Source of the DNA: Gammaproteobacteria bacterium
GTDB lineage: Bacteria; Pseudomonadota; Gammaproteobacteria; Tethybacterales; Persebacteraceae
Length of the DNA: 24,000 nucleotides
Assembly (NCBI GenBank): GCA_020027345.1
Contig: JAHRAH010000140.1
Coordinates: 1 to 24,000, forward strand
Direction of reading: 5' to 3'
Part shown: positions 1,450-16,672 of the stretch, piece by piece
Layout: every line of letters starts with the position of its first letter
Numbering within the stretch: position 1 is the stretch's first letter
The notes under the pieces: model-generated
Database searches by the model: none
What the model was told of the DNA's origin: nothing
Seen by the model: only the letters and a program-made list of their open reading frames with translations
Translations under genes and position numbers: made by a program

Positions 1450-1536
1450 CTATACCCCCCGCCGCGAAGCGGGGGGGGGGGTCGGAGCGTTCCCCGACGA
1501 AAACGTCGTCGGGGAACGCTCCGGGGGGTTGGAGAA
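1444..1536. repeat. Mosaic repeat, copy C1 (AATTAAC leader, C6/G11 hairpin, 17-bp perfect hairpin, G6-TTGGAGAA tail)
   Basis: CCCCCCGC (1455-1462) pairs with GCGGGGGG (1469-1476). CGGAGCGTTCCCCGACG (1483-1499) pairs perfectly with CGTCGGGGAACGCTCCG (1507-1523). It sits between two convergent genes and has the same architecture as 3696-3790. Confidence 0.8.
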
Positions 1537-1578
1537 CGCCCGCAAAATAACAGTTCACCCCGTATAAATAACAGTCCC

Positions 1579-2496
1579 CTATTCCGGTTCTTCGTTTCGG
1601 GTTCTCAGGAATACGGGGAATCTTGGGATTCCGTTTTCGGTAAATCCCTGGTGTTTGTATGTCACCGTCGCGCCGACGGGCGGGGGGTTTTTGCGTTGCG
1701 CGTCCTTTAATCCGCTGCCGATGGAAAACTCTTTTCCGTCGGCGAGGGCGCGGGCGCGCAGCGAGCCGGTCATTCCCGCGTATTTTCCCTTGCCCGGATT
1801 GTGCCCGATGACGACCGCCTCGGCGTCGGCAAACGGTTTATACTTCAACAAATCGTCGCTGCGTCCGACTCGGTGCAAAGATTCAATCCGCCGCAGCATC
1901 AAACCCTCGCCGCCTTCATCAACTATCTTCGCAAACCGCATTTCCAATTCTTCGGAGGAACCGGCCGCTTTTTGTTCAACAACACTCCAATATTTGTTTT
2001 CCGAATCCGCCGCGTATTCTTTCAGTTTTGCGTAACGCTCGCGAAAAACCCCGCCGTGTTCGGGCAAGTCAAAAACCATATACCGAATCTTCCGCCATCC
2101 CTCGTGCGGTTTTTTCCGGCGCACCGTCCCCGATGCGTATTCAAACTTTCCGCGCCCCGCCCAGAGTTCGCCGTCCAGCCGCGCGCCCGGAAAGCCGGCG
2201 GTAAACCATTCCGGCGCCGCAAAAACCTTACCCCCGCGCGAGACCAGCCGGCGACCGTCCCAGAATGCGCGAACGCCGTCGTATTTTTCGCTCACCCAAT
2301 ATTCTTCCAGCACCGCGACACCGTCGGAACGATACTCGCGCGCCAAAGAAAACCCCGGCTTTTGCGCCTTAAGTAAATTAACCCCCGGCTTTGCGACATT
2401 CTCCCCGGCAAAAACAAAACCGCAAACAACCGCCGCCGCGACAACCGCAACAACCCCGCGAGTCATCCCCCGAAAAAACCCCGCGAAAAAAACCAT
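1579..2496 (-). CDS. ATP-dependent DNA ligase, minimal Lig E-type with N-terminal signal peptide
   Basis: 305-aa ORF. The adenylation motif I is present (SEKYDGVR, KxDG lysine), and a C-terminal OB-like region ends in ENGIPRFPVFLR. The N-terminus MTRGVVAVVAAAVVCGFVFAGE looks like a signal peptide. Start is ATG 2496, or ATG 2466 as an alternative. Confidence 0.85.
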   Translation of the reverse strand: MVFFAGFFRGMTRGVVAVVAAAVVCGFVFAGENVAKPGVNLLKAQKPGFSLAREYRSDGVAVLEEYWVSEKYDGVRAFWDGRRLVSRGGKVFAAPEWFTAGFPGARLDGELWAGRGKFEYASGTVRRKKPHEGWRKIRYMVFDLPEHGGVFRERYAKLKEYAADSENKYWSVVEQKAAGSSEELEMRFAKIVDEGGEGLMLRRIESLHRVGRSDDLLKYKPFADAEAVVIGHNPGKGKYAGMTGSLRARALADGKEFSIGSGLKDAQRKNPPPVGATVTYKHQGFTENGIPRFPVFLRTRNEEPE

Positions 2497-2508
2497 CCCC
2501 GCAAAAAA

Positions 2509-2952
2509 TCAATTCAACGAAGCCGGCACCGCAAGCGAAAACATCGGTATTTCCACTTCCAGTTCGCCCGCGTCGTCGCGCCGCATAATGTAGGCGCCGT
2601 TCATTGTCCCCACCGGCGTGGGCATATCCACATAACTCGCGTATTCGTAGCGCGCCCCCGGGCGCAAATACGGCTGCTCGCCCACGACGCCCTCGCCCTT
2701 CACTTCGCGCACCCGGTTGTCGCCGTCCGTTATCGTCCACCGCCGCGAAATCAGCCGCAGCGGAACCTCCCCCAGATTCTCAATCCGTATGTGATACGCA
2801 AACCAAAAATCGTCATCGTCCTCTATCGGCGGCTCCGGCAGGTGTTCCCAGCGCACCCGCACGCAAACCCGCACCCCGTCCTTTTCCGTAACCGCCGACG
2901 CAACCTTGCGCGAAAGTTTTTCCCCCTCGTCCGTCCCGCTCATCTTTTGCAT
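2509..2952 (-). CDS. apaG: ApaG (DUF525) domain protein
   Basis: ApaG-like sequence is visible (FWFAYHIRIENLG...LISRRWTITDG...V.GEGVVGEQP.L.PG..YEY.S). The start is ambiguous among 2982, 2952 and 2943. I chose 2952 to avoid a head-to-head overlap with rpe. It lies 12 nt upstream of the ligase gene on the same strand. Confidence 0.8.
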   Translation of the reverse strand: MQKMSGTDEGEKLSRKVASAVTEKDGVRVCVRVRWEHLPEPPIEDDDDFWFAYHIRIENLGEVPLRLISRRWTITDGDNRVREVKGEGVVGEQPYLRPGARYEYASYVDMPTPVGTMNGAYIMRRDDAGELEVEIPMFSLAVPASLN

Positions 2953-2958
2953 TATAAT
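2953..2958 (+). promoter_or_regulatory. Candidate -10 box (TATAAT) for rpe
   Basis: Perfect TATAAT hexamer 17 nt upstream of the rpe ATG, in the short divergent apaG/rpe region. No convincing -35 was seen. Confidence 0.3.
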
Positions 2959-2975
2959 ACCCCCACCGCGCCCGA

Positions 2976-3647
2976 ATGCCAATCACCGTCGCCGCCAGTT
3001 TGCTCGCCGCGGATTTCGCCCGACTCGGCGAAGAAGCCGCAGCCGCCCTCGCAGCCGGCGCCGACTGGCTGCACCTGGATGTGATGGACAACCACTATGT
3101 CCCCAATCTCACCTTCGGCGCACTCGCCTGCCGCGCCCTGCGCAAGCACCCGCAAACGGCGGACGCCTTTTTGGACGCCCACCTGATGACCGAACCCGTG
3201 GATTCGCTCATCACCCCCTTCGCCGAAGCCGGCGCGAACCGCCTCACCTTCCACCCCGAAGCCAGCCGTCATCCCCACCGCACCGCCGCCGCCATCAACG
3301 CCGCCGGAATGCGATGCGGCATCGCTCTCAACCCGGCGACACCCCTCGCCACTCTCGCGCATCTCCTCCCCCTCGCCGACTTGGTTTTGTTGATGACAGT
3401 CAACCCCGGCTTTGGCGGGCAGCCGTTCATCGCCGACTCCCCCCGCAAAATCCGCGAAACCCGGCAACTGTTGGATTCCACCGGCAACGAAAAAATCCTC
3501 CTCCAAACAGACGGCGGAATCAACCCAAAAACCGCAAAACTCTGCGCCACCGCCGGCGCAAATGTCCTAGTAGCCGGCAACGCCATCTTCGCCGCCCCCA
3601 ACTACCAAACCGCCATAACCTCCCTCCGCCAAGGCGAGAAAGATTAA
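2976..3647 (+). CDS. rpe: Ribulose-phosphate 3-epimerase
   Basis: 223-aa ORF with hallmark Rpe motifs (SLLAADF, LHLDVMDNHYVPNLTFG, DAHLM, MTVNPGFGGQ.F, DGGIN). It is followed by gph, as in many proteobacteria. Confidence 0.93.
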   Translation: MPITVAASLLAADFARLGEEAAAALAAGADWLHLDVMDNHYVPNLTFGALACRALRKHPQTADAFLDAHLMTEPVDSLITPFAEAGANRLTFHPEASRHPHRTAAAINAAGMRCGIALNPATPLATLAHLLPLADLVLLMTVNPGFGGQPFIADSPRKIRETRQLLDSTGNEKILLQTDGGINPKTAKLCATAGANVLVAGNAIFAAPNYQTAITSLRQGEKD

Positions 3648-3695
3648 CAGCCAAGGCAAGAAAGAGTAACGGCAACCGTGTCATCGCCCCTCCCC

Positions 3696-3790
3696 CAACC
3701 TATACCCCCCGCCGCTTGCGGGGGGGGGTCGGAGTTTGTCGTCCGCATCTACGATGCGAACGGCAAACTCCGGGGGGGTGGAGAAGGTGA
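3696..3790. repeat. Mosaic repeat, copy C2
   Basis: The TATACCCCCCGCCGC..GCGGGGGGGG hairpin pairs 3705-3712 with 3718-3725. A long hairpin is closed by CGGAGTTTG (3730-3738) and CAAACTCCG (3764-3772), with a different interior from C1 (CGCATC/GATGCG inner stem). The tail is G7-TGGAGAAGG. Confidence 0.8.
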
Positions 3791-3810
3791 AGAACACCAT
3801 CAGTCAAAAC

Positions 3811-3862
3811 AAACCAACCCCCCCCCATCTCCGATGGGGGGGGGCTGGGGGGGGGAAACCCC
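3811..3862. repeat. Poly-C/poly-G hairpin element, copy B1
   Basis: Layout is C9-ATC (3818-3829), TCC loop, GAT-G9 (3833-3844), CT, G9 (3847-3855), AAA, CCCC. This gives a 12-bp stem. Related copies lie at 6658-6710 and 6871-6922. Confidence 0.85.
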
Positions 3863-4592
3863 AAAAACCAACCCCGCCGCCCTCTTTGACTTAGACGGCA
3901 CCCTAGTCAACACCGCCCCCGACATCCACGCCGCCGCCTCTGCAATGTTAAAAGAGTTATCCCTCCCCTCTCTCCCCTTCGCCGAAGCGCGACAGTTCAT
4001 CGGCGACGGCATCACGCGATTCGTCAAACGCGCGCTCACCCGCCAGTGGTGGGGCGAGCCAACCCCCGAACTCCTAAGCCGCGCCGAAGAGTCCATGCGC
4101 CGACACTACGCCCGCGAATGCGTCGCCCGCCTTTTGTGTTACGACGGCGTCCCCGAAACCCTGCGCGCGCTCAAAGAATCCGGGCTGCCGATGGCATGCG
4201 TCACAAACAAACCCGCCCGCTTTTCGCAGCCCCTCCTCGCCGCTTGCGGATTGAACGAATACTTCGCCGCAGTCGTCAGCGGCGACACCCTCCCCGTCAA
4301 AAAGCCAAACCCCGAACCACTCCTCGCCGCCATAACCACCCTCGGCGCGGACCCCGGTCAAACATGGATGATTGGCGATTCCGCCGCCGACGCCAAAGCC
4401 GCAAGCGCAGCCGGCTGCCGTTTTGCCGTAGTCGCCTACGGTTACCACCGCGCCGGTCAACTCCCCCCGGCGGACGCCGTTTTGCAAACATTCCCCGAAA
4501 CCCTCCCCCTCCTCGCCCCGCAAACCCCCGCCGAAGAAAAGCAAAAAAAACAAAAACAAAAAACGCCGCAAGCCGCCCCGCAAACTGTATAA
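3834..4592 (+). CDS. gph: Phosphoglycolate phosphatase (HAD superfamily)
   Basis: HAD motifs are present: FDLDGTLVNT (motif I), VTNKP (motif II), GDS..D (motif IV). It sits downstream of rpe. The nearest in-frame start before motif I is ATG 3834, inside the B1 hairpin stem. The track ORF starting at 3678 (GTG) reads through repeats C2 and B1 and is not credible. The protein has a low-complexity Lys/Gln-rich C-terminal tail. Confidence 0.8.
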   Translation: MGGGWGGETPKTNPAALFDLDGTLVNTAPDIHAAASAMLKELSLPSLPFAEARQFIGDGITRFVKRALTRQWWGEPTPELLSRAEESMRRHYARECVARLLCYDGVPETLRALKESGLPMACVTNKPARFSQPLLAACGLNEYFAAVVSGDTLPVKKPNPEPLLAAITTLGADPGQTWMIGDSAADAKAASAAGCRFAVVAYGYHRAGQLPPADAVLQTFPETLPLLAPQTPAEEKQKKQKQKTPQAAPQTV

Positions 4593-4593
4593 T
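4588..4593 (+). promoter_or_regulatory. Candidate -10 box (TATAAT) overlapping the gph stop codon
   Basis: Perfect TATAAT 7 nt upstream of the ABC ATPase ATG at 4601. If functional, it would give a leaderless or nearly leaderless transcript. Confidence 0.2.
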
Positions 4594-4600
4594 TAAAAAG

Positions 4601-5341
4601 ATGCAGGCACTGCTCGTCAAGGATTTGCATAAGGCGTATCTTTCCGCCCCCGTCCTGCGCGGGATAGACCTCGCCGTGCAAGCTGGCGACTCTTTCGGCT
4701 TCGCCGGCGCGAACGGCGCCGGAAAAAGCACCCTCCTCAAATGCGTGCTCAACTTCATCCACTACGAGCGCGGCGAAATATCCTTTTTCGGCATCTCCGC
4801 AAAAAACCGCGAGGCGCGCAAGCGCATCGCCTTTTTGCCCGAGCGCTTTATCCCCCCCTACTACCTCAGCGGCGAGCAATTCCTCCGCCTGATGATGAAA
4901 CTGCAGGGCGAAACCTACGCCCGCCCCGCCGCCGAAGAAATGCTCGCCGGGCTGGATTTGGACCTCACCGCCCTCGCAAAATCCGTCCGCTCTTTCTCCA
5001 AGGGTATGACGCAAAAACTCGGGCTCGCCGCCTGCTTTCTCGCCAAGCGCGATTTCTACCTGCTGGACGAACCCATGAGCGGGCTGGACCCGAAAGCCCG
5101 CGCCCTCGTCAAGCGGCAATTTATAAAACTCAAAGAACGCGGCGCCACTTTGTTTTTTACCTCGCACGCCCTCGCCGACATTGACGAAATGTGCGCGCGC
5201 GTCGCCGTCCTCCACGACGGAAGAATATGCTACGACGGCGAACCCGCCGCGATGCGCGCCGCTTTTTCCGGCGCCGAAACGCTGGAAGAAGCGTATCTCC
5301 GCGCCATCGGCGACAAAAACGGAAACGCAAAAAATGATTGA
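4601..5341 (+). CDS. ABC transporter ATP-binding protein (ABC-2/NatA-like), no adjacent permease
   Basis: Walker A GANGAGKST, signature-like FSKGMTQK, Walker B FYLLDEP and H-loop TSHAL are present. ATG at 4601 is in the frame of track ORF 4046-5341. The upstream part of that ORF is an Arg-rich shadow over gph. Confidence 0.85.
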   Translation: MQALLVKDLHKAYLSAPVLRGIDLAVQAGDSFGFAGANGAGKSTLLKCVLNFIHYERGEISFFGISAKNREARKRIAFLPERFIPPYYLSGEQFLRLMMKLQGETYARPAAEEMLAGLDLDLTALAKSVRSFSKGMTQKLGLAACFLAKRDFYLLDEPMSGLDPKARALVKRQFIKLKERGATLFFTSHALADIDEMCARVAVLHDGRICYDGEPAAMRAAFSGAETLEEAYLRAIGDKNGNAKND

Positions 5342-6620
5342 CCCGTCGCTGCTGCGGGGCGACTTCGCGGCGGCGGCAAAAAACTTCGCACGCCGCGGAC
5401 TGCATATATCCGAACGCGAATTCGCCGCCGCCGGCGAACTCCGCAAAAACGCGCAAAACAAATGCGAAACCCTGCGCGCAAAACGCAACGAACTCTCCCG
5501 CGAAATCGGAAAAGCAAAATCCGAAGGCGAAAGCGATGCCGCAAAAAAACTCCTCGCCCAAGCCGCCGCCCTCGGAGACGATTTGCAAAATGCCGAAAAA
5601 GAATTCGCCAAGGCGCGCGGGGACGAAGCGCGCCTGCTCCACGAACTGCCGAATCTTCTGCAGGAGACCGTCCCCGAAGGCGCGACTTCCGAAGACAACA
5701 AAGAACTGCGCCGATGGGGGGGAGCGCCCGTTTTTGATTTCGCCCCCGCCGACCACGCCGAACTCGGCGCCGCTTTGGAAATGATGGATTTCGCCCGCGC
5801 CGCAAAAATGGCATCCGCAAGATTCGTCGCGCTCTCCGGCGAACTCGCGCAAATGCACCGCGCCCTCGCCCAGTGGATGATGGACTTGCATTCGCAAAAG
5901 CATGGTTACCGCGAAGCGTATCTGCCGATGCTCGTCAACCCCCGCGCCGTTTTCGGCGCCGGGCAACTGCCGAAATTCGCAAACGAACTCTTCTTCGCCG
6001 AACGCGATTCGCTCTATCTGATTCCCACCGCCGAAATACCCGCGACAAACTGGGCGCGCGAAAGAATCATCCCCGAAAGCGAACTGCCAATTAAAATTGT
6101 CGCGCACACCCCGTGCTTTCGCCGCGAAGCCGGCGCCCACGGAAAGGACACCCGCGGAATGCTCCGCCAGCACCAGTTTGACAAAGTGGAACTCGTCCAT
6201 ATAACCGCCCCCGAAAACTCCGAAAAAGCGCACGAAGAAATGACCGCACACGCCGAAACCGTTTTGCAGGAACTGCAACTGCCCTACCGCGTAGTCGTCC
6301 TCTGCGCCGGCGACACCGGATTCGCCGCCGCAAAAACTTACGATTTGGAAGTGTGGCTGCCCGGACAAAACACCTACCGCGAAATATCCTCCTGCAGCAA
6401 CTGCGGCGACTTTCAGGCAAGAAGAATGCAAACGCGCGTCAAAAACAAGGACGGAAAAATAAACCTAGTCCACACGCTCAACGGTTCCGGCGTAGCCGTC
6501 GGCCGCGCCCTCATCGCCGTCATGGAAAACCACCAAACCAAAGACGGCAACATAACCGTCCCCAACCCCCTGCGCCCCTACATGCAAAACAAAAAAACAA
6601 TCCCCTCCCCCCCCCAATGA
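5334..6620 (+). CDS. serS: Seryl-tRNA synthetase
   Basis: Starts MIDPSLLRGDF, followed by an N-terminal coiled-coil arm and class II motifs (FRRE.G..G.DTRGM.R.HQF.KVE, GSG.AVGR...A..EN.Q). ATG 5334 overlaps the ABC gene stop by 8 nt (ATGATTGA). Confidence 0.93.
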   Translation: MIDPSLLRGDFAAAAKNFARRGLHISEREFAAAGELRKNAQNKCETLRAKRNELSREIGKAKSEGESDAAKKLLAQAAALGDDLQNAEKEFAKARGDEARLLHELPNLLQETVPEGATSEDNKELRRWGGAPVFDFAPADHAELGAALEMMDFARAAKMASARFVALSGELAQMHRALAQWMMDLHSQKHGYREAYLPMLVNPRAVFGAGQLPKFANELFFAERDSLYLIPTAEIPATNWARERIIPESELPIKIVAHTPCFRREAGAHGKDTRGMLRQHQFDKVELVHITAPENSEKAHEEMTAHAETVLQELQLPYRVVVLCAGDTGFAAAKTYDLEVWLPGQNTYREISSCSNCGDFQARRMQTRVKNKDGKINLVHTLNGSGVAVGRALIAVMENHQTKDGNITVPNPLRPYMQNKKTIPSPPQ

Positions 6621-6657
6621 AAAACAACCCAACCCCCCCTCCATCTTTGATGGAAAA

Positions 6658-6710
6658 CAAATTAACCCCCCCCCCATCTCCGATGGGGGGGGTGGGGGGG
6701 GGGAAACCCC
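6658..6710. repeat. Poly-C/poly-G hairpin element, copy B2 (preceded by degenerate copy at 6628-6657)
   Basis: Layout is CAAATTAAC, C10-ATC (6666-6678), TCC, GAT-G8 (6682-6692), T, G10 (6694-6703), AAA, CCCC. A degenerate copy with the stem TCCATC-TTT-GATGGA lies at 6640-6654. Confidence 0.85.
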
Positions 6711-6715
6711 TCGCT

Positions 6716-6826
6716 CTCGTTACACCTCTCCAGAGGTGTAACGCATCCAACAATAGCGGGCGTCCACGCCCGCTCAAACCAGCGTCATTCCCGCACTCTC
6801 CCAAAAGGCGGGAATCCAGCAAATTA
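6716..6826. repeat. Mosaic intergenic repeat, copy A2 (three-hairpin composite)
   Basis: Perfect palindrome GTTACACCTCT-CC-AGAGGTGTAAC at 6719-6742. Hairpin AGCGGGCG-TCCA-CGCCCGCT at 6755-6774. GTCATTCCCGC-N13-GCGGGAATCCAGCAAATTAA with the core at 6787-6815. Confidence 0.85.
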
Positions 6827-6870
6827 ATTGGAACGGCGGAGACACCGTCCCCCAAAAACAACCCCCAAAA

Positions 6871-6922
6871 CAAATTAACCCCCCCCCCATCTCCGATGGG
6901 GGGGGCTGGGGGGGGGAAACCC
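6871..6922. repeat. Poly-C/poly-G hairpin element, copy B3
   Basis: Layout is CAAATTAAC, C10-ATC (6879-6891), TCC, GAT-G8 (6895-6905), CT, G9 (6908-6916), AAA, CCC. Confidence 0.85.
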
Positions 6923-8347
6923 AAACCCCAAAAAATCCGCACCCGCTTCGCCCCCTCCCCCACCGGAAACCTCCACATCGGCGGCGCCCGCACGGCCCTC
7001 TTCAATTGGATATGCGCCCGCCAAACCGGCGGAGAATTCATCCTCCGCTTTGAAGACACCGACACAGCCCGCAGCACAAAAGAATTCGCCGAATCCATTA
7101 AAAAAGATTTGCAGTGGCTCGGACTGCACTGGGACGGCGAACCCCAAAAACAAAGCGCGCGCGCGAACCGTCACCGCGAACTCGCCGAACAACTGTTGCA
7201 AAGCGGCGCCGCATACCGCTGCTATTGCGCCCCCGAAGAACTCGCCGCAATGCGCGAAGCCCAACTCGCCCGCGGCGAAAGCCCCCGCTACGACCGCCGC
7301 TGGCGCGATTCCAAAAAAAGCCCCCCGCCCGGAATAAAACCCGCGCTGCGTTTGAAAGCCCCGCTAAGCGGCGAAAGCGTTTTTGCCGACGCCGTCAAGG
7401 GAAAAATGACCGTCGCCAATTCCGAACTGGACGATTTTGTTTTGCTGCGCGCAAACGGCGCCCCGACTTACAATCTGGCGAATGTCGCCGACGATATGGA
7501 CGGCGAAATAACGCACATCATCCGCGGCGACGACCATCTGATGAACACGCACCGTCAATTGCAATTGTTTTCCGCCCTCGGAAAAAAGCCGCCGGTTTTC
7601 GCGCACCTGCCGATGATTCTCGCGCGCGCGCAAAACGAAAGCGGCGAAACAATAAAGGACAAAAAAGGCGAAACGGTATACGAAAGAATGTCCAAGCGCG
7701 CCGCCGCCGCCGGCATCGCCGAATGCCGCGAAAACGGATTTTTGCCGGAAGCCGTCGTCAACTACCTCGCGCGATTGTCGTGGGCGAAAGGCGACGCCGA
7801 AATCTTTGATGCCAACTTTCTGCTCGCCCACTTCTCGCTCGCGACGGTAACCCCCTCCCCCGCGCGCCACAACCCCGAAAAAATGCAATGGCTCAACCGC
7901 GAACATCTGCACAACCTCCCCCCCGAAGAAGCAAACCGCCGCGCAAAAAAACTCACAAACGGCGAACTGCAAATCAGCGACGAAGCCGCCGCATTAATCC
8001 TCCCCCGCGCCGAAACCCTGCGCGACTTCGCCCACCGCGCAAAATTCTTCCAAACCGCCCCTCCCCCGAACAAGGAATTACTTGTGCAACACCCCCTCCC
8101 CGATTCCTTCCCCGCCCTAATCGCCGCATTGGATGCAATCCCCGAAAGCGAATGGCATCCCCCCGCCATCAAAACCGCCATCCAAAAAACCGCAAAAGCG
8201 TCCGGATTAAAATTCCCCCAACTCGCAATGCCCCTCCGCGTCCTCCTAACCGCCCAAAAAGAATCCCCCGACATAACCCAAACCACCGCCCTCCTAGGCA
8301 AACCCGAAACCTTAAAACGGCTGTCGGCTTTTTCCGAAATCGGATAA
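6896..8347 (+). CDS. gltX: Glutamyl-tRNA synthetase
   Basis: KIRTRFAPSPTGNLHIGGARTALFNW carries the HIGH-type motif, and MSKR is a KMSKS-like motif. GluRS-like sequence continues throughout. The only in-frame start near the conserved N-terminus is ATG 6896, inside the B3 hairpin. The track ORF from 6353 overlaps serS and reads through the repeats. Confidence 0.85.
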   Translation: MGGAGGGKPKPQKIRTRFAPSPTGNLHIGGARTALFNWICARQTGGEFILRFEDTDTARSTKEFAESIKKDLQWLGLHWDGEPQKQSARANRHRELAEQLLQSGAAYRCYCAPEELAAMREAQLARGESPRYDRRWRDSKKSPPPGIKPALRLKAPLSGESVFADAVKGKMTVANSELDDFVLLRANGAPTYNLANVADDMDGEITHIIRGDDHLMNTHRQLQLFSALGKKPPVFAHLPMILARAQNESGETIKDKKGETVYERMSKRAAAAGIAECRENGFLPEAVVNYLARLSWAKGDAEIFDANFLLAHFSLATVTPSPARHNPEKMQWLNREHLHNLPPEEANRRAKKLTNGELQISDEAAALILPRAETLRDFAHRAKFFQTAPPPNKELLVQHPLPDSFPALIAALDAIPESEWHPPAIKTAIQKTAKASGLKFPQLAMPLRVLLTAQKESPDITQTTALLGKPETLKRLSAFSEIG

Positions 8348-8356
8348 AATCCCGGA

Positions 8357-9178
8357 ATGCAGTCGCAGCACGGAAAAAAATGGACGCGGAAAGAAACGCT
8401 GGCGGCGTTTAACCATTACTTTCGCATTCCCTTCGGCAAATTTCACCGTAGCAATCTGGAAGTTATTCGGATTGCCGGATTGATGGGGCGCAGCCCCGGC
8501 TCGGTGTCAATGAAATTGTGCAACCTCGCCAGCCACGACGCCAAAATCAAAGGCAAAGGCAAGGCGGGATTGAAACACGCGTCCAAAATGGACGCGCAAG
8601 TGTGGGAGGAGTTTTACGCCAACCCTGACATACTTGTCCGCGAAAGCGAACAAGCCGCGGCCGCGCTGGAAAACCAAACGGTTGAGGAACACGCGCTCGC
8701 GCATTGCTTAACCGGAACTGCGGACATCCCCGAAGGGCGGGAGCAGGAGCGGGTTGTCCGGGTTCGGATTCATCAATCGTGGTTCCGCCGCGCAATTCTT
8801 TCCGACTACCGCAACCGTTGTTGTGTTACGGGGCTTGCCGTGCCGGGATTGCTGAACGCCAGCCACATCGTCCCGTGGAGCGAAAACACCAAAAATCGGC
8901 TGAACCCGGAAAATGGGCTATGCCTAAATATCCTGCACCACCGCGCTTTTGACCTGGGGATGATGACAATCACGCCGGACGGCGCGATAAAAATATCCCC
9001 CTCCCTGCGCGCCGCCGCGCGCCCCAACTCCCGCGCATCCTTCATCGCCGAAGTCCACGGCAAAAAAATAGAAATGCCCCGCAACCACCCGCCCTCCCCC
9101 GAATTCCTGAAATACCACAACCGCCAAATCTTCCAAGAAAATCTCGGCCCCGGCGGAACACCGCATTTGCCATTGTAA
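8357..9178 (+). CDS. HNH endonuclease family protein (HNH_2-type, putative restriction-like nuclease)
   Basis: 273-aa ORF. The C-terminal half reads HQSWFRRAILSDYRNRCCVTG....LNASHIVPW.....RLNPENGLCLN.LHHRAFD.G, typical of the HNH_2 family. The N-terminal region KWTRKETLAAFNHYF looks like a small helical or wHTH domain. It starts 9 nt after the gltX stop. Confidence 0.85.
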   Translation: MQSQHGKKWTRKETLAAFNHYFRIPFGKFHRSNLEVIRIAGLMGRSPGSVSMKLCNLASHDAKIKGKGKAGLKHASKMDAQVWEEFYANPDILVRESEQAAAALENQTVEEHALAHCLTGTADIPEGREQERVVRVRIHQSWFRRAILSDYRNRCCVTGLAVPGLLNASHIVPWSENTKNRLNPENGLCLNILHHRAFDLGMMTITPDGAIKISPSLRAAARPNSRASFIAEVHGKKIEMPRNHPPSPEFLKYHNRQIFQENLGPGGTPHLPL

Positions 9179-9265
9179 ACCCACGCCTTTACAAGCATTT
9201 GTCTGCGGTGTTTGCAGTCAAACCCCATAGGAGGGCGGATTTTTGTTTTGAGAGACGAATTGTTG

Positions 9266-9271
9266 TATAAT
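9266..9271 (+). promoter_or_regulatory. Candidate -10 box (TATAAT) with strong Shine-Dalgarno AGGAGG at 9279-9284
   Basis: The sequence TTGTATAATGTGCATAGGAGGATATCCGATG contains a perfect -10 hexamer, and AGGAGG lies 6 nt before ATG 9291. The surrounding 110-nt spacer is visibly AT-richer than the rest of the window. Confidence 0.35.
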
Positions 9272-9290
9272 GTGCATAGGAGGATATCCG

Positions 9291-10274
9291 ATGCTGAAAC
9301 AACCCTTGGGAAAATTAATGTCTGTCAACTTGCAGGATGTGTGGGAAACGGAAGCCGGGGGCTTTACGCCCTGGCTGGCGGCGCACATTGGAATTCTCGC
9401 CGACGCCATTGGCTTGGAACTCGAGAACCCGGAAAAAGAAAAACAGGTGGGTGCGTTCAGTGCGGACATTTTGTGCAAGGATGCCAGCGACGGCTCGCTA
9501 GTGGTGGTGGAAAACCAAATGGGGAAATCCGACCACAAACACCTGGGGCAAATTCTGACTTACGCGACGGGCTTGCACGCAAAAACAGTTGTCTGGATTG
9601 CGCGTGAATTTCGCGAAGAACACCGTGCCGCGCTGGACTTGCTCAACGCCAACATGAAGGAGGAATACCGTTTTTTTGGGTTGGAAGTGGAGTTGTGGAA
9701 AATCGGCGATTCCAAACCCGCGCCAAAGTTGAGCGTCGTTGTCAGCCCCAACGATTGGAGCAAGGATGTGTTTCGCGCAAGCAAGGGTGAAATGTCCGAG
9801 TCCGAAGCGCGGTGGTTGCTTTACTGGACGGAGTTTGCTAAGTACCTGGACGAATCGGCTTTTCATCTTTCCGCTCGGAAGCCGCGTCCTAGCAATTGGA
9901 TGAATTTCGCAGTTGGGCGCAGCGGCGTAAAAATATCCGCTTGCTGGAAAAACAGTGGGCGCCGATTGGAAGTGCAACTTCGCGCAACCGACCAAAACGC
10001 CGAGGCGTTTTACGGTTTGCTTGCCGAAGAGGCGCAGGCGATTGACAGGCAAATCGGCTTTTCGCTGGATTGGGAAGCCGGGCGCCCCGCCTCCGGCAAA
10101 AAAAGGGCGTATATTTGCGCTGGCAAGGACGACGCCGACATCAAAGTCAAAAGCAAGTGGAAAAACCAGCATCAATGGCTGGCGGACACCGTGCGGAAAT
10201 TTGACAGCGTTTTTCGCGAGCGCGTCAAAGAACTAAACCCCGAAGATTGGGATGCCAATCAAGAGAACGATTGA
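9291..10274 (+). CDS. PD-(D/E)xK (NucS/DUF91-like) nuclease-fold N-domain fused to a DUF4268-like C-domain
   Basis: The N-terminal motif FSADILCKD...LVVVENQMGKSDHKHLGQILTYA is the D...ENQ...HLGQ..TY signature of NucS-like PD-(D/E)xK modules. The C-terminal about 170 aa (WLLYWTEF..YL....R....NWMNF..G..G......W) resembles DUF4268. ATG 9291 has a canonical SD. The track start at 9270 lies inside the -10 box. Confidence 0.8.
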   Translation: MLKQPLGKLMSVNLQDVWETEAGGFTPWLAAHIGILADAIGLELENPEKEKQVGAFSADILCKDASDGSLVVVENQMGKSDHKHLGQILTYATGLHAKTVVWIAREFREEHRAALDLLNANMKEEYRFFGLEVELWKIGDSKPAPKLSVVVSPNDWSKDVFRASKGEMSESEARWLLYWTEFAKYLDESAFHLSARKPRPSNWMNFAVGRSGVKISACWKNSGRRLEVQLRATDQNAEAFYGLLAEEAQAIDRQIGFSLDWEAGRPASGKKRAYICAGKDDADIKVKSKWKNQHQWLADTVRKFDSVFRERVKELNPEDWDANQEND

Positions 10275-10285
10275 CGGCGAGAGCG

Positions 10286-10313
10286 AGGCAGGACTAGCCG
10301 CCCTGTCCTGCTT
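10286..10313 (+). terminator. Weak hairpin downstream of the DUF4268-like gene
   Basis: GCAGGAC (10288-10294) pairs with GTCCTGC (10305-10311), extendable by two pairs, with a 10-nt loop. It is followed only by TTT, so it is not a strong intrinsic terminator. Confidence 0.25.
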
Positions 10314-10397
10314 TCCGCCGTTGTTGGTGGAGAGCATCGCCGTGCGGGGGGATAAAACCTTCGGGCATTGGGAACGCAGAGTATAACCGCCAAACGG

Positions 10398-10486
10398 CGG
10401 AGAGGGAGGGATTCGAACCCTCGATGGAGTTTTTGCCCCATACTCCCTTAGCAGGGGAGCGCCTTCAGCCGCTCGGCCACCTCTCC
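10398..10486 (-). tRNA. tRNA-Ser (anticodon GCU)
   Basis: The reverse complement reads GGAGAGGTGGCCGAGCGGCTGAAGGCGCTCCCCTGCTAAGGGAG..long variable arm..GAGGGTTCGAATCCCTCCCTCTCCG. It has a 7-bp acceptor stem, a D-loop with GG, the anticodon loop CT-GCT-AA, a long extra arm typical of Ser, and a T-loop TTCGAAT. CCA is not encoded. Confidence 0.9.
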
Positions 10487-11750: not shown

Positions 11751-11772
11751 TTCTTAATTCTAACAAACCAAC

Positions 11773-11892
11773 CGTCATTCCTGCGAAAGCCGGAATCCAT
11801 ACGGAGCCGGCGGAAAAGGTGAATTCCCCCCCCGCGCGAAAACAACGAGAAGGCAAAGCAAGTATGGATTCCTGCTTTCGCAGGAATGACGG
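11773..11892. repeat. dRS3-like inverted pair D1 (MITE/NIME-like unit)
   Basis: CGTCATTCCTGCGAAAGCCGGAATCCATACGG (11773-11804) is matched by its inverted copy GTATGGATTCCTGCTTTCGCAGGAATGACGG (11862-11892), with a 57-nt spacer. Each arm is itself an ATTCC-N-GGAAT palindrome. It lies in the divergent lysC/phyH-like intergenic region. Confidence 0.85.
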
Positions 11893-13609: not shown

Positions 13610-13621
13610 CCGTCCCCCGCG

Positions 13622-13779
13622 CAAATTAACTATGCCTCCCGCCGCTTGCGGGGTAATTCGTCATTCCCGCGAAAGCGGGAATCCATACGGTCATTGTTTT
13701 TCCGCTGGATTTCGGGCGGTATAAAGTTCTGCGGTTTTCGCGGGCGAGTTATGGATTCCCGCCTTCGCGGGAATGACGG
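13622..13779. repeat. Hybrid repeat: C-type leader/hairpin fused to dRS3-like inverted pair D2
   Basis: The leader and hairpin CAAATTAACTATGCCTCCCGCCGCTTGCGGGG occupy 13622-13653. The left arm CGTCATTCCCGCGAAAGCGGGAATCCATACGG is at 13659-13690, followed by a 59-nt spacer. The inverted right arm TATGGATTCCCGCCTTCGCGGGAATGACGG is at 13750-13779. The ATTCCC-N8-GGGAAT cores are at 13663-13682 and 13755-13774. Confidence 0.85.
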
Positions 13780-16630: not shown

Positions 16631-16647
16631 TTCCACCTATCCCCGCC

Positions 16648-16672
16648 ATTCCCACTTGCGCGGGAATGACGG
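16648..16672. repeat. Single dRS3-like site D3
   Basis: ATTCCC-ACTTGCGC-GGGAAT-GACGG in right-arm orientation, located in the 48-nt gap between the convergent GS-like and yidD genes. Confidence 0.75.

Follow-up and report, generated by a model that had tools for sequence, protein, structure and literature searches.

The window, by which we mean the whole 24,000-nt stretch of DNA that was analysed, carries on its plus strand the gene of ribulose-phosphate 3-epimerase (rpe, 2976-3647) and, downstream of it in the same reading frame, that of the HAD phosphoglycolate phosphatase (gph), the conserved body of which begins with AALFDLDGT and occupies positions 3876-4592. The gph frame was open from the rpe stop onward. 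Across the two genes (2976-4592), the single TAA of rpe at 3645-3647 was the only stop that intervened, and its read-through would fuse Rpe to Gph. The body of gph was intact over 239 codons, all HAD domains scored strongly, and the identity to relatives was 69-71%. The closest named homologue belonged to Candidatus Persebacteraceae, which are host-associated bacteria of the Tethybacterales type, and the next relative was 71% identical.

The spacer between rpe and gph contains the element B1, a 56-nt palindromic repeat with G/C-homopolymer arms (3806-3861, plus strand), the sequence of which is AAAACAAACCAAC-C9-ATCTCCGAT-G9-CT-G9-AAACCC. Its left part consists of a C9 run at 3818-3826 and ATC TCC GAT at 3827-3835, and its right part of G9 at 3836-3844, CT at 3845-3846, a second G9 at 3847-3855, AAA at 3856-3858 and CCCC at 3859-3862, so that the layout C9-ATC TCC GAT-G9-CT-G9-AAA-CCCC given by the initial annotation was confirmed by the sequence of the window. 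RNA folding of positions 3800-3880 gave -43.5 kcal/mol (z = -2.8 relative to shuffles). The hairpin (3815-3848, plus strand) contained a 12-bp C9AUC/GAUG9 stem, three outer pairs and a UCC loop, and its right arm contained the ATG at 3834-3836, a candidate in-frame start of gph that would give MGGGWGGETPKTNPAALFDLDGT. The sequence and the fold thus bore out the earlier statements that a 12-bp G/C stem holds this ATG in its right arm and that the codon is buried in a very stable hairpin with two G9 tracts behind it. These two homopolymer tracts (G9-CT-G9, 3836-3855, plus strand) are present in any translated 5' end of gph. The C-run had also been proposed to pair with either G-run; pairing with the second run is possible, but it was far weaker than pairing with the first (-22.8 versus -40.8 kcal/mol). 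The direct repeat AAACCAACCCC (11 nt), with copies at 3811 and 3865, flanked B1.

B1 was not alone in the window. Two further 56-nt copies were found between serS and gltX, B2 at 6654-6709 and B3 at 6867-6922, directly 5' of gltX, together with a degenerate B-like copy at 6621-6654, AAAACAACCCAAC-C7-TCCATC-TTT-GATGGA (all on the plus strand). The 11-nt direct repeat around B1 had no equivalent at B2 and B3. The three full copies shared one orientation, were 79-100% identical and extended over exactly 56 nt each, from AAAACAAA to AAACCC. Their tract lengths differed (C9/G9/CT/G9 in B1, C10/G8/T/G10 in B2 and C10/G8/CT/G9 in B3) with the total length remaining equal, and this constancy hints at selection on frame, whereas a switch would need the opposite. 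The window contained four matches to the pattern C6-N9-G6, compared with an expectation of 0.00 from 100 shuffles. The core of the B elements, from the C-run to the G-run, was free of stop codons in all six frames. In the left flank of B2 and B3, the TAA within ATTAAC shut one frame per strand. The tandem period of the B element was 57 nt, a multiple of three. Thus, as in repeats of the MITE or Rickettsia palindromic element type, similar short non-coding copies were dispersed (three of 56 nt and one degenerate in 24 kb) and folded into palindromic hairpins with stems of 12-15 bp and, for B1, the -43.5 kcal/mol given above. No clear terminal inverted repeats and no consistent target-site duplication were found in the B copies, and no transposase was seen within the 24-kb window.

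Each of the three B copies (3814-3848, 6668-6692 and 6881-6905) scored as terminator-like on the minus strand, with a GC stem followed by TTGGTTTGTTTTG, GGTTAATTTG or GGTTAATTTGTTTT, whereas on the gene strand none did, and the total of terminator-like structures in the region was not above that of shuffles. Antisense transcription could perhaps be stopped by them. In the scan of the window against Rfam at gathering thresholds, tRNA was the sole match and the B1 hairpin matched no known RNA family. The promoter scan found no sigma-70-like site in or near the elements.

The window also contained other hairpin repeats. A-type repeats are composite hairpins built of CTATA-C6GCCGC-loop-GCGG-G9/11, TCGGAG-(variable perfect palindrome)-CTCCG and G5-7-T(T)GGAG. 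A1 (1450-1534, plus strand) lay between the convergent genes of enoyl-CoA hydratase and DNA ligase. A2 (3700-3783, plus strand), a composite double hairpin in the rpe/gph spacer, had CTATA-C6GCCGC-loop-GCGG-G9, TCGGAG and CTCCG around a palindrome, and G7-TGGAG. The inner palindrome differed between A1 and A2, while the surrounding frame was conserved, and a degenerate left part of an A-type repeat was found at 13620-13655. Several spacers were filled with further hairpin repeats, including units of the dRS3/NIME type, ATTCCCGC...GCGGGAAT. The dRS3/NIME-like repeats of the form GTCATTCCCGC...GCGGGAATCC were located at 159-295, 6783-6827, 11772-11802, 11862-11892, 13659-13687, 13750-13778 and 16643-16672, and in the relative L009 at 2838-2862. 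In relatives, dRS3-like repeats with the translation VIPAQAGI... lengthened the annotated C-termini of Gph (P0006, P0124 and P0126). A 54-nt repeat with two hairpins (CTCTCCAGAGGTGTAACGC...AGCGGGCGTCCxCGCCCGCT) occurred at 100-153 and 6726-6779 with 96% identity, and it was followed at both sites by a dRS3-like unit, which indicated that the same mosaic block was present twice.

Comparison with relatives showed what the junctions look like without the elements. In the relative represented by L006-L008, the Gph of which is 69% identical, the same gene order lig-apaG-rpe-gph-ABC-serS-gltX-HNH was tightly packed, rpe and gph overlapped as ATGA, the serS-gltX spacer measured 13 nt, and the C/G hairpins were not found. 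The elements were absent at both the rpe/gph and the serS/gltX junctions in L006-L009, so that their presence and absence could be followed at orthologous sites, here as well as in the acsB homologues described below. In the window, A- and B-type elements fill about 220 nt at the rpe/gph junction, compared with the 4-nt ATGA overlap of relatives. Since the elements were missing from the orthologous junctions, they represent insertions specific to this lineage, by which a translationally coupled junction was opened. Among the homologues of gph, 19 of 21 start 2-5 residues before ALFDLDGT; the corresponding N-terminal region in the window is TNPAALFDLDGT, with no start codon where the relatives start, which implied that the native ATG of gph is gone. 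Three inserted genes of unknown function lay at the rpe/gph junction of L009 (736-2959), and insertions seem to recur at this place. Downstream of gltX, the region 8357-10486 of the window contained a gene of an HNH_2 endonuclease, which is syntenic in the element-free relative, and past it a DUF4268 gene and tRNA-Ser(GCT) (10396-10486, minus strand), where the synteny with the relative ends.

The loss of the native start leaves two candidates for gph. The ATG at 3834 was in frame with the HAD domain and was the only ATG, GTG or TTG between the element and FDLDGT, in agreement with the earlier claim that it is the sole canonical in-frame start between the repeat and HAD motif I. No near-cognate codon (CTG, ATH, ACG, AAG or AGG) was found between it and FDLDGT, and a non-canonical start downstream of B1 was rejected for this reason. 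A leaderless transcript beginning at the stem ATG was rejected as well, as the -10 region would fall in the C-run. The second candidate, absent from the initial annotation, is the GTG at 3678-3680 (plus strand), 31 nt past the rpe stop, which was in frame with gph with no intervening stop and is the start of the NCBI model P0001 of 304 aa. The Shine-Dalgarno-like AAAGAG of this GTG was weak and badly spaced.

The accessibility of the two candidates was very different. Unfolding the region from -18 to +12 relative to the start was calculated to cost 29.9 kcal/mol for ATG 3834 and 31.4 and 27.9 kcal/mol for the two remaining stem ATGs, while the values were 0.1-11.4 kcal/mol for 11 other starts of the window, including GTG 3678 (6.8 kcal/mol) and the ATG at 6617 discussed below (0.1 kcal/mol). 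According to the thermodynamics of initiation, unaided initiation is negligible where opening takes about 30 kcal/mol. With this cost the B1 stem is too stable for a reversible gate; gating hairpins and RNA thermometers are marginally stable, and B1 folded with -43.5 kcal/mol and required about 30 to open. The suggestion that the hairpin is a structural translational gate of gph was therefore not upheld, the opening cost being far beyond that of reversible gating hairpins and GTG 3678 being accessible. Based on these calculated costs, read-through from upstream appears more likely than initiation within the stem, and initiation at the buried ATG 3834 appears to be the less likely alternative.

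A parallel arrangement was found at gltX. Its conserved body (6935-8347, plus strand) begins at a near-cognate ATC in the position of native codon 3, and the native start of the relatives (MSFVRTRF, MSKTTPLIRARF) was missing in the window. The stem ATG of B3 at 6896 was in frame with gltX and would give MGGAGGGKPKPQKIRTRFAPSPTG. Further upstream, an ATG that overlaps the serS stop as ATGA (6617-6619, plus strand) shared the reading frame of gltX across 104 repeat codons; the distance from this ATG to ATC 6935 was 106 codons, of which about 104 were inserted repeats, with no stop among them. In the 318-nt spacer between serS and gltX, the gltX frame contained 0 stops versus 5 and 2 in the other frames. 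If ATG-AAA were joined to ATC-CGC, it would give MKIRTRF, which resembles a typical GltX N-terminus, and the ATC at 6935 itself is a possible start of gltX. At the 3' end of serS (6600-6620) there was a C9 run, and the protein was about four residues longer than in relatives (…KKTIPSPPQ, then the stop), which suggested that the remodelling of the junction had reached the upstream gene too.

Copies of the element were also found inside other genes. Translated copies were present in the NCBI proteins P0127, P0128 and P0129. In P0127, a hydantoinase B protein, four tandem 19-aa units NKLTPPPSPMGGAGGGKTP added about 70 residues to the interior of the conserved domain. In P0129, an ApbE protein, an internal insertion of about 42 aa contained copies in both orientations, and further copies were located at the N-terminus, where the stem ATG would give a plausible lipoprotein signal peptide of 29 residues. 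The annotated N-terminus of a GDPD protein likewise included element copies. For three genes, those of Gph, GltX and ApbE P0129, the stem ATG was in frame and no canonical start followed it ahead of the conserved N-terminus, which, together with the signal peptide of ApbE, fits the idea that the element donates starts, an alternative that retains some weight. The six-frame peptide search, in which low-complexity candidates dominated, yielded at least three proteins, and the exhaustive one-frame profile search yielded two relevant proteins; in both cases the proteins were located via annotated ORFs, so that the sample is biased toward in-frame cases.

Outside this group, the scan of the genome collection for C7-ATCTCCGAT-G7 gave a single match, in a Chloroflexota MAG (L001; JBDRTP010000284.1), which contained the identical 36-nt core C8-ATCTCCGAT-G8-CT-G9. 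The core sat within a 51-nt (17-codon) perfect palindrome with full 22-nt arms, in frame in a variable loop of acsB, and was absent from acsB homologues with 82-90% identity. This copy is symmetric, while the B copies of the window are asymmetric at the left end. The insertions in P0127, P0129 and the acsB of L001 all kept the frame and were free of stops. The acsB gene that bears the element (L001 3769-7758, minus strand) encodes 1329 aa and has, as judged by eye, an apparent large intein-like insertion (…ACLTEDANVLVDG … NGIHVKNCG). The metagenome scan for C6...G6 gave four contigs with one locus type, in which convergent genes flank a related but shorter hairpin. At this locus (L002 2328-2362 and 2433-2470, also in L003-L005; JGI metagenome), two hairpins, C6ATCG-loop-CGATG6 and C6-ATCTCCGAT-G6-ATTGA-G6, lay beside tandem copies of the motif GCTTGTTCCGCTGATCTACGCGGA, and the second of them shared the layout of the B element, namely C-run, loop, G-run, spacer and G-run. 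No match to the hairpin was found in the viral contigs that were scanned.

Taken as a whole, these results are best explained by a dispersed selfish palindromic repeat that is tolerated in frame, with gph read from upstream, and we regard this explanation as probable, with a fair amount of doubt left. B1 would be one copy of a dispersed 56-57-nt palindromic family with G/C-homopolymer arms, which may behave like MITEs or Rickettsia palindromic elements in occupying gene junctions and in being tolerated as in-frame insertions within coding sequences. The stem ATG would be a by-product of the CATC/GATG palindrome, which has ATG-GGG on both strands, and no device that evolved for gph. The hydantoinase, ApbE and AcsB must be read through their repeats, and the same route is proposed for gph and gltX. 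Translation of gph would begin at the accessible in-frame GTG 3678, possibly via re-initiation after rpe, and elongating ribosomes would unwind both hairpins, producing a Gph with a Pro/Gly-rich N-terminal extension that would include the peptides SSPLPQPIPPAACGGGSEFVVR and LRGGGEGEEHHQSK. Likewise, gltX would be read from ATG 6617 at the serS stop, maybe with the help of terminating ribosomes. The open frames themselves could be due to chance in T-poor sequence, with rough p values of about 0.07 for gltX and about 0.4 for gph. Such tolerated selfish DNA fits a lineage that may be under weak selection, and B1 is probably a tolerated insertion rather than a dedicated switch of gph.

The competing explanation that kept the most support holds that the stem ATG 3834 is the true start of gph and that the hairpin and the G9 tracts work as a gate, as a phase-variation switch or as both. 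It draws on the observations that, this ATG apart, no canonical or near-cognate start lies in frame between the element and FDLDGT, that the native ATG of gph is absent, that the arrangement recurs at gltX and ApbE P0129, and that the tract lengths vary at constant total length, as would fit frame-preserving slippage. However, with an opening cost of about 30 kcal/mol and no Shine-Dalgarno sequence, unaided initiation at this ATG would be extremely inefficient, and an accessible in-frame GTG lies upstream. The element is a dispersed insertion that is missing in relatives, and it recurs in the 5' part of the normally essential gltX and inside enzyme domains, where a switch makes no sense. We consider this explanation unlikely.

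The phase-variation part of this reading deserves closer comparison. The poly-G and poly-C contingency tracts of Neisseria and Haemophilus are locus-specific and belong to surface, restriction-modification and host-interaction genes. Like them, the B elements place G9-G10 tracts just after a candidate start, where a change of one base would switch the frame, and those of B1 are part of the 5' coding region whether gph begins at ATG 3834, which they directly follow, or farther upstream at GTG 3678. Unlike them, the tracts of the B elements belong to a mobile repeat, and the genes concerned are housekeeping genes (gph, gltX, apbE and hyuB). Instead of a locus-specific tract in a dispensable gene, we found dispersed tracts at gltX, hyuB, apbE and GDPD, with gph and gltX both being housekeeping genes. 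The proposal of a slipped-strand contingency locus dedicated to gph thus did not hold up against a dispersed insertion that also lies before gltX and inside enzymes. Because the G9/C9 tracts are translated whichever start is used, a change of one base in them would abolish Gph. The tracts would therefore be a frameshift liability that may cause accidental on/off changes and no adaptive switch; accidental on/off heterogeneity from frameshifts in G9 is physically plausible. This liability is shared with gltX and with the copies inside enzymes, which argues against an adaptive contingency locus, and such a locus at gph is unlikely.

A wider proposal gives the element a role in gene expression at all these sites. 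According to it, a stop-free palindrome of 51-57 nt moves between phyla, here between a Tethybacterales-like symbiont and an Anaerolineales-like member of the Chloroflexota, inserts in frame and donates its stem ATG where the native start has been displaced (gph, apbE and perhaps gltX). The lengths of two G9 tracts and the melting of a hairpin of about -40 kcal/mol would then decide the expression of housekeeping genes, with stochastic on/off states as the result. We consider this proposal decidedly unlikely.

It is very unlikely that the insertions have inactivated gph, or are inactivating it, as a recent pseudogene or a poorly expressed gene of a symbiont in which purifying selection is weak. 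Such decay would fit the loss of the native start, the burial of the one ATG that is left, the frameshift-prone tracts in the 5' region and the relationship of the lineage to the host-associated Tethybacterales/Persebacteraceae. Against this, gph is intact over its 239 codons, with strong HAD domains and the high identity to relatives given above; the same situation exists at gltX, which is normally indispensable, and the frames stay open through the repeats.

An origin of the poly-C/poly-G elements, or of their tract lengths, in sequencing or assembly errors is highly improbable. The source is a MAG contig (the NCBI contig that encodes P0001 measures 37 kb), homopolymers are prone to error, and the identical 36-nt core in an unrelated Chloroflexota MAG could mean a shared technical origin. 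But the flanks differ among the copies, degenerate variants and a related A-type family exist, the three copies keep exactly equal total length, and the reading frame is preserved in gltX, hydantoinase B, ApbE and acsB. An adapter origin was also considered, and no adapter-like sequence was recognised in ATCTCCGAT or in the elements. The plus strand of the window was C-rich from 1500 to 9000 (GC skew of -0.25 to -0.30, versus about 0 in the remaining window). This strong skew was rejected as a sign of artefact, as it came mainly from a preference for C at third codon positions of rpe-gltX, which were 49-62% C and 14-20% G; the element-free relative had no skew at the same genes.

The least probable explanation, one we give almost no weight, is that the element is skipped by translational bypassing, as in T4 gene 60 or byp, or by excision at the RNA level to give a protein without the repeat peptide: the elements are stable hairpins inside coding sequences, and GC-rich hairpin insertions in coding sequences of Magnusiomyces mitochondria are bypassed, but no stop codon followed a take-off site, the gph and gltX frames had no in-frame stop within the element or behind it, bypass signals were not found, and plain read-through requires just such elements, free of stops and with a tandem period divisible by three.

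Several known systems resemble the B elements in part. Ogata et al. (2000) reportedly described Rickettsia palindromic elements in protein-coding genes. These are selfish palindromic repeats that lie in frame within protein-coding genes (PMC10969869). Like them, the B elements are dispersed, palindromic and of non-coding size; they lie in intergenic regions and in unrelated metabolic genes, in frame and free of stops, where they add a conserved peptide, and they too occur in a host-associated lineage. Unlike the Rickettsia elements, which are AT-rich and of about 100-150 bp, the B element has 51-57 nt, G/C-homopolymer arms and a hairpin near -40 kcal/mol, is found at gene starts without native ATG, and has an identical core in another phylum. 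The mobile GC clusters or byp elements of yeast mitochondria, which according to Lang et al. (2014) are reportedly bypassed by ribosome hopping, are similar in that short GC-rich hairpins have spread into coding genes without destroying them, but they belong to an organelle and depend on hopping, whereas the B elements need only plain in-frame translation and no bypass signals were seen in them. REP and BIME sequences are abundant short extragenic palindromes that often follow the 3' end of a gene or separate the genes of an operon; they have a conserved GTAG head and are associated with RAYT transposases. The B elements may, like them, affect the mRNA stability and the translation of neighbouring genes; the B consensus contained no GTAG, some copies were intragenic, and no Y1 transposase or RAYT was found in the window. 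The Correia elements and the NIME/dRS3 mosaics of Neisseria are alike in that several short hairpin families are packed into spacers (PMC10969869). As with Correia and NIME sequences, the repeats lie directly upstream of genes and would be co-transcribed as stable RNA hairpins, and units like dRS3 (ATTCCCGC..GCGGGAAT) are present in the window too. The 26-bp terminal inverted repeats, TA target duplication, promoters and IHF sites of Correia elements were not found here, and insertions of Correia elements in genes usually disrupt them (PMC10969869), unlike those of the B elements. The literature searches found no description of the B element.

The B elements appear to be a new family of short palindromic repeats with G/C-homopolymer arms that are tolerated in frame, similar to Rickettsia palindromic elements and MITEs, and as a regulatory device specific to gph, B1 is probably not significant. 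For annotation, the elements mean that gene callers extend ORFs through repeats, as in the 304-aa Gph and in the N-termini of ApbE and GDPD, and that the starts assigned to such genes are predictions. The identical core in an unrelated phylum would mean either the horizontal spread of an element of less than 60 nt or a recurrent artefact. If the family is real, selfish DNA within genes, which is best known from Rickettsia, extends to another lineage and to G/C arms that are incapable of forming stops, and tightly coupled operon junctions can be split open while their genes survive.
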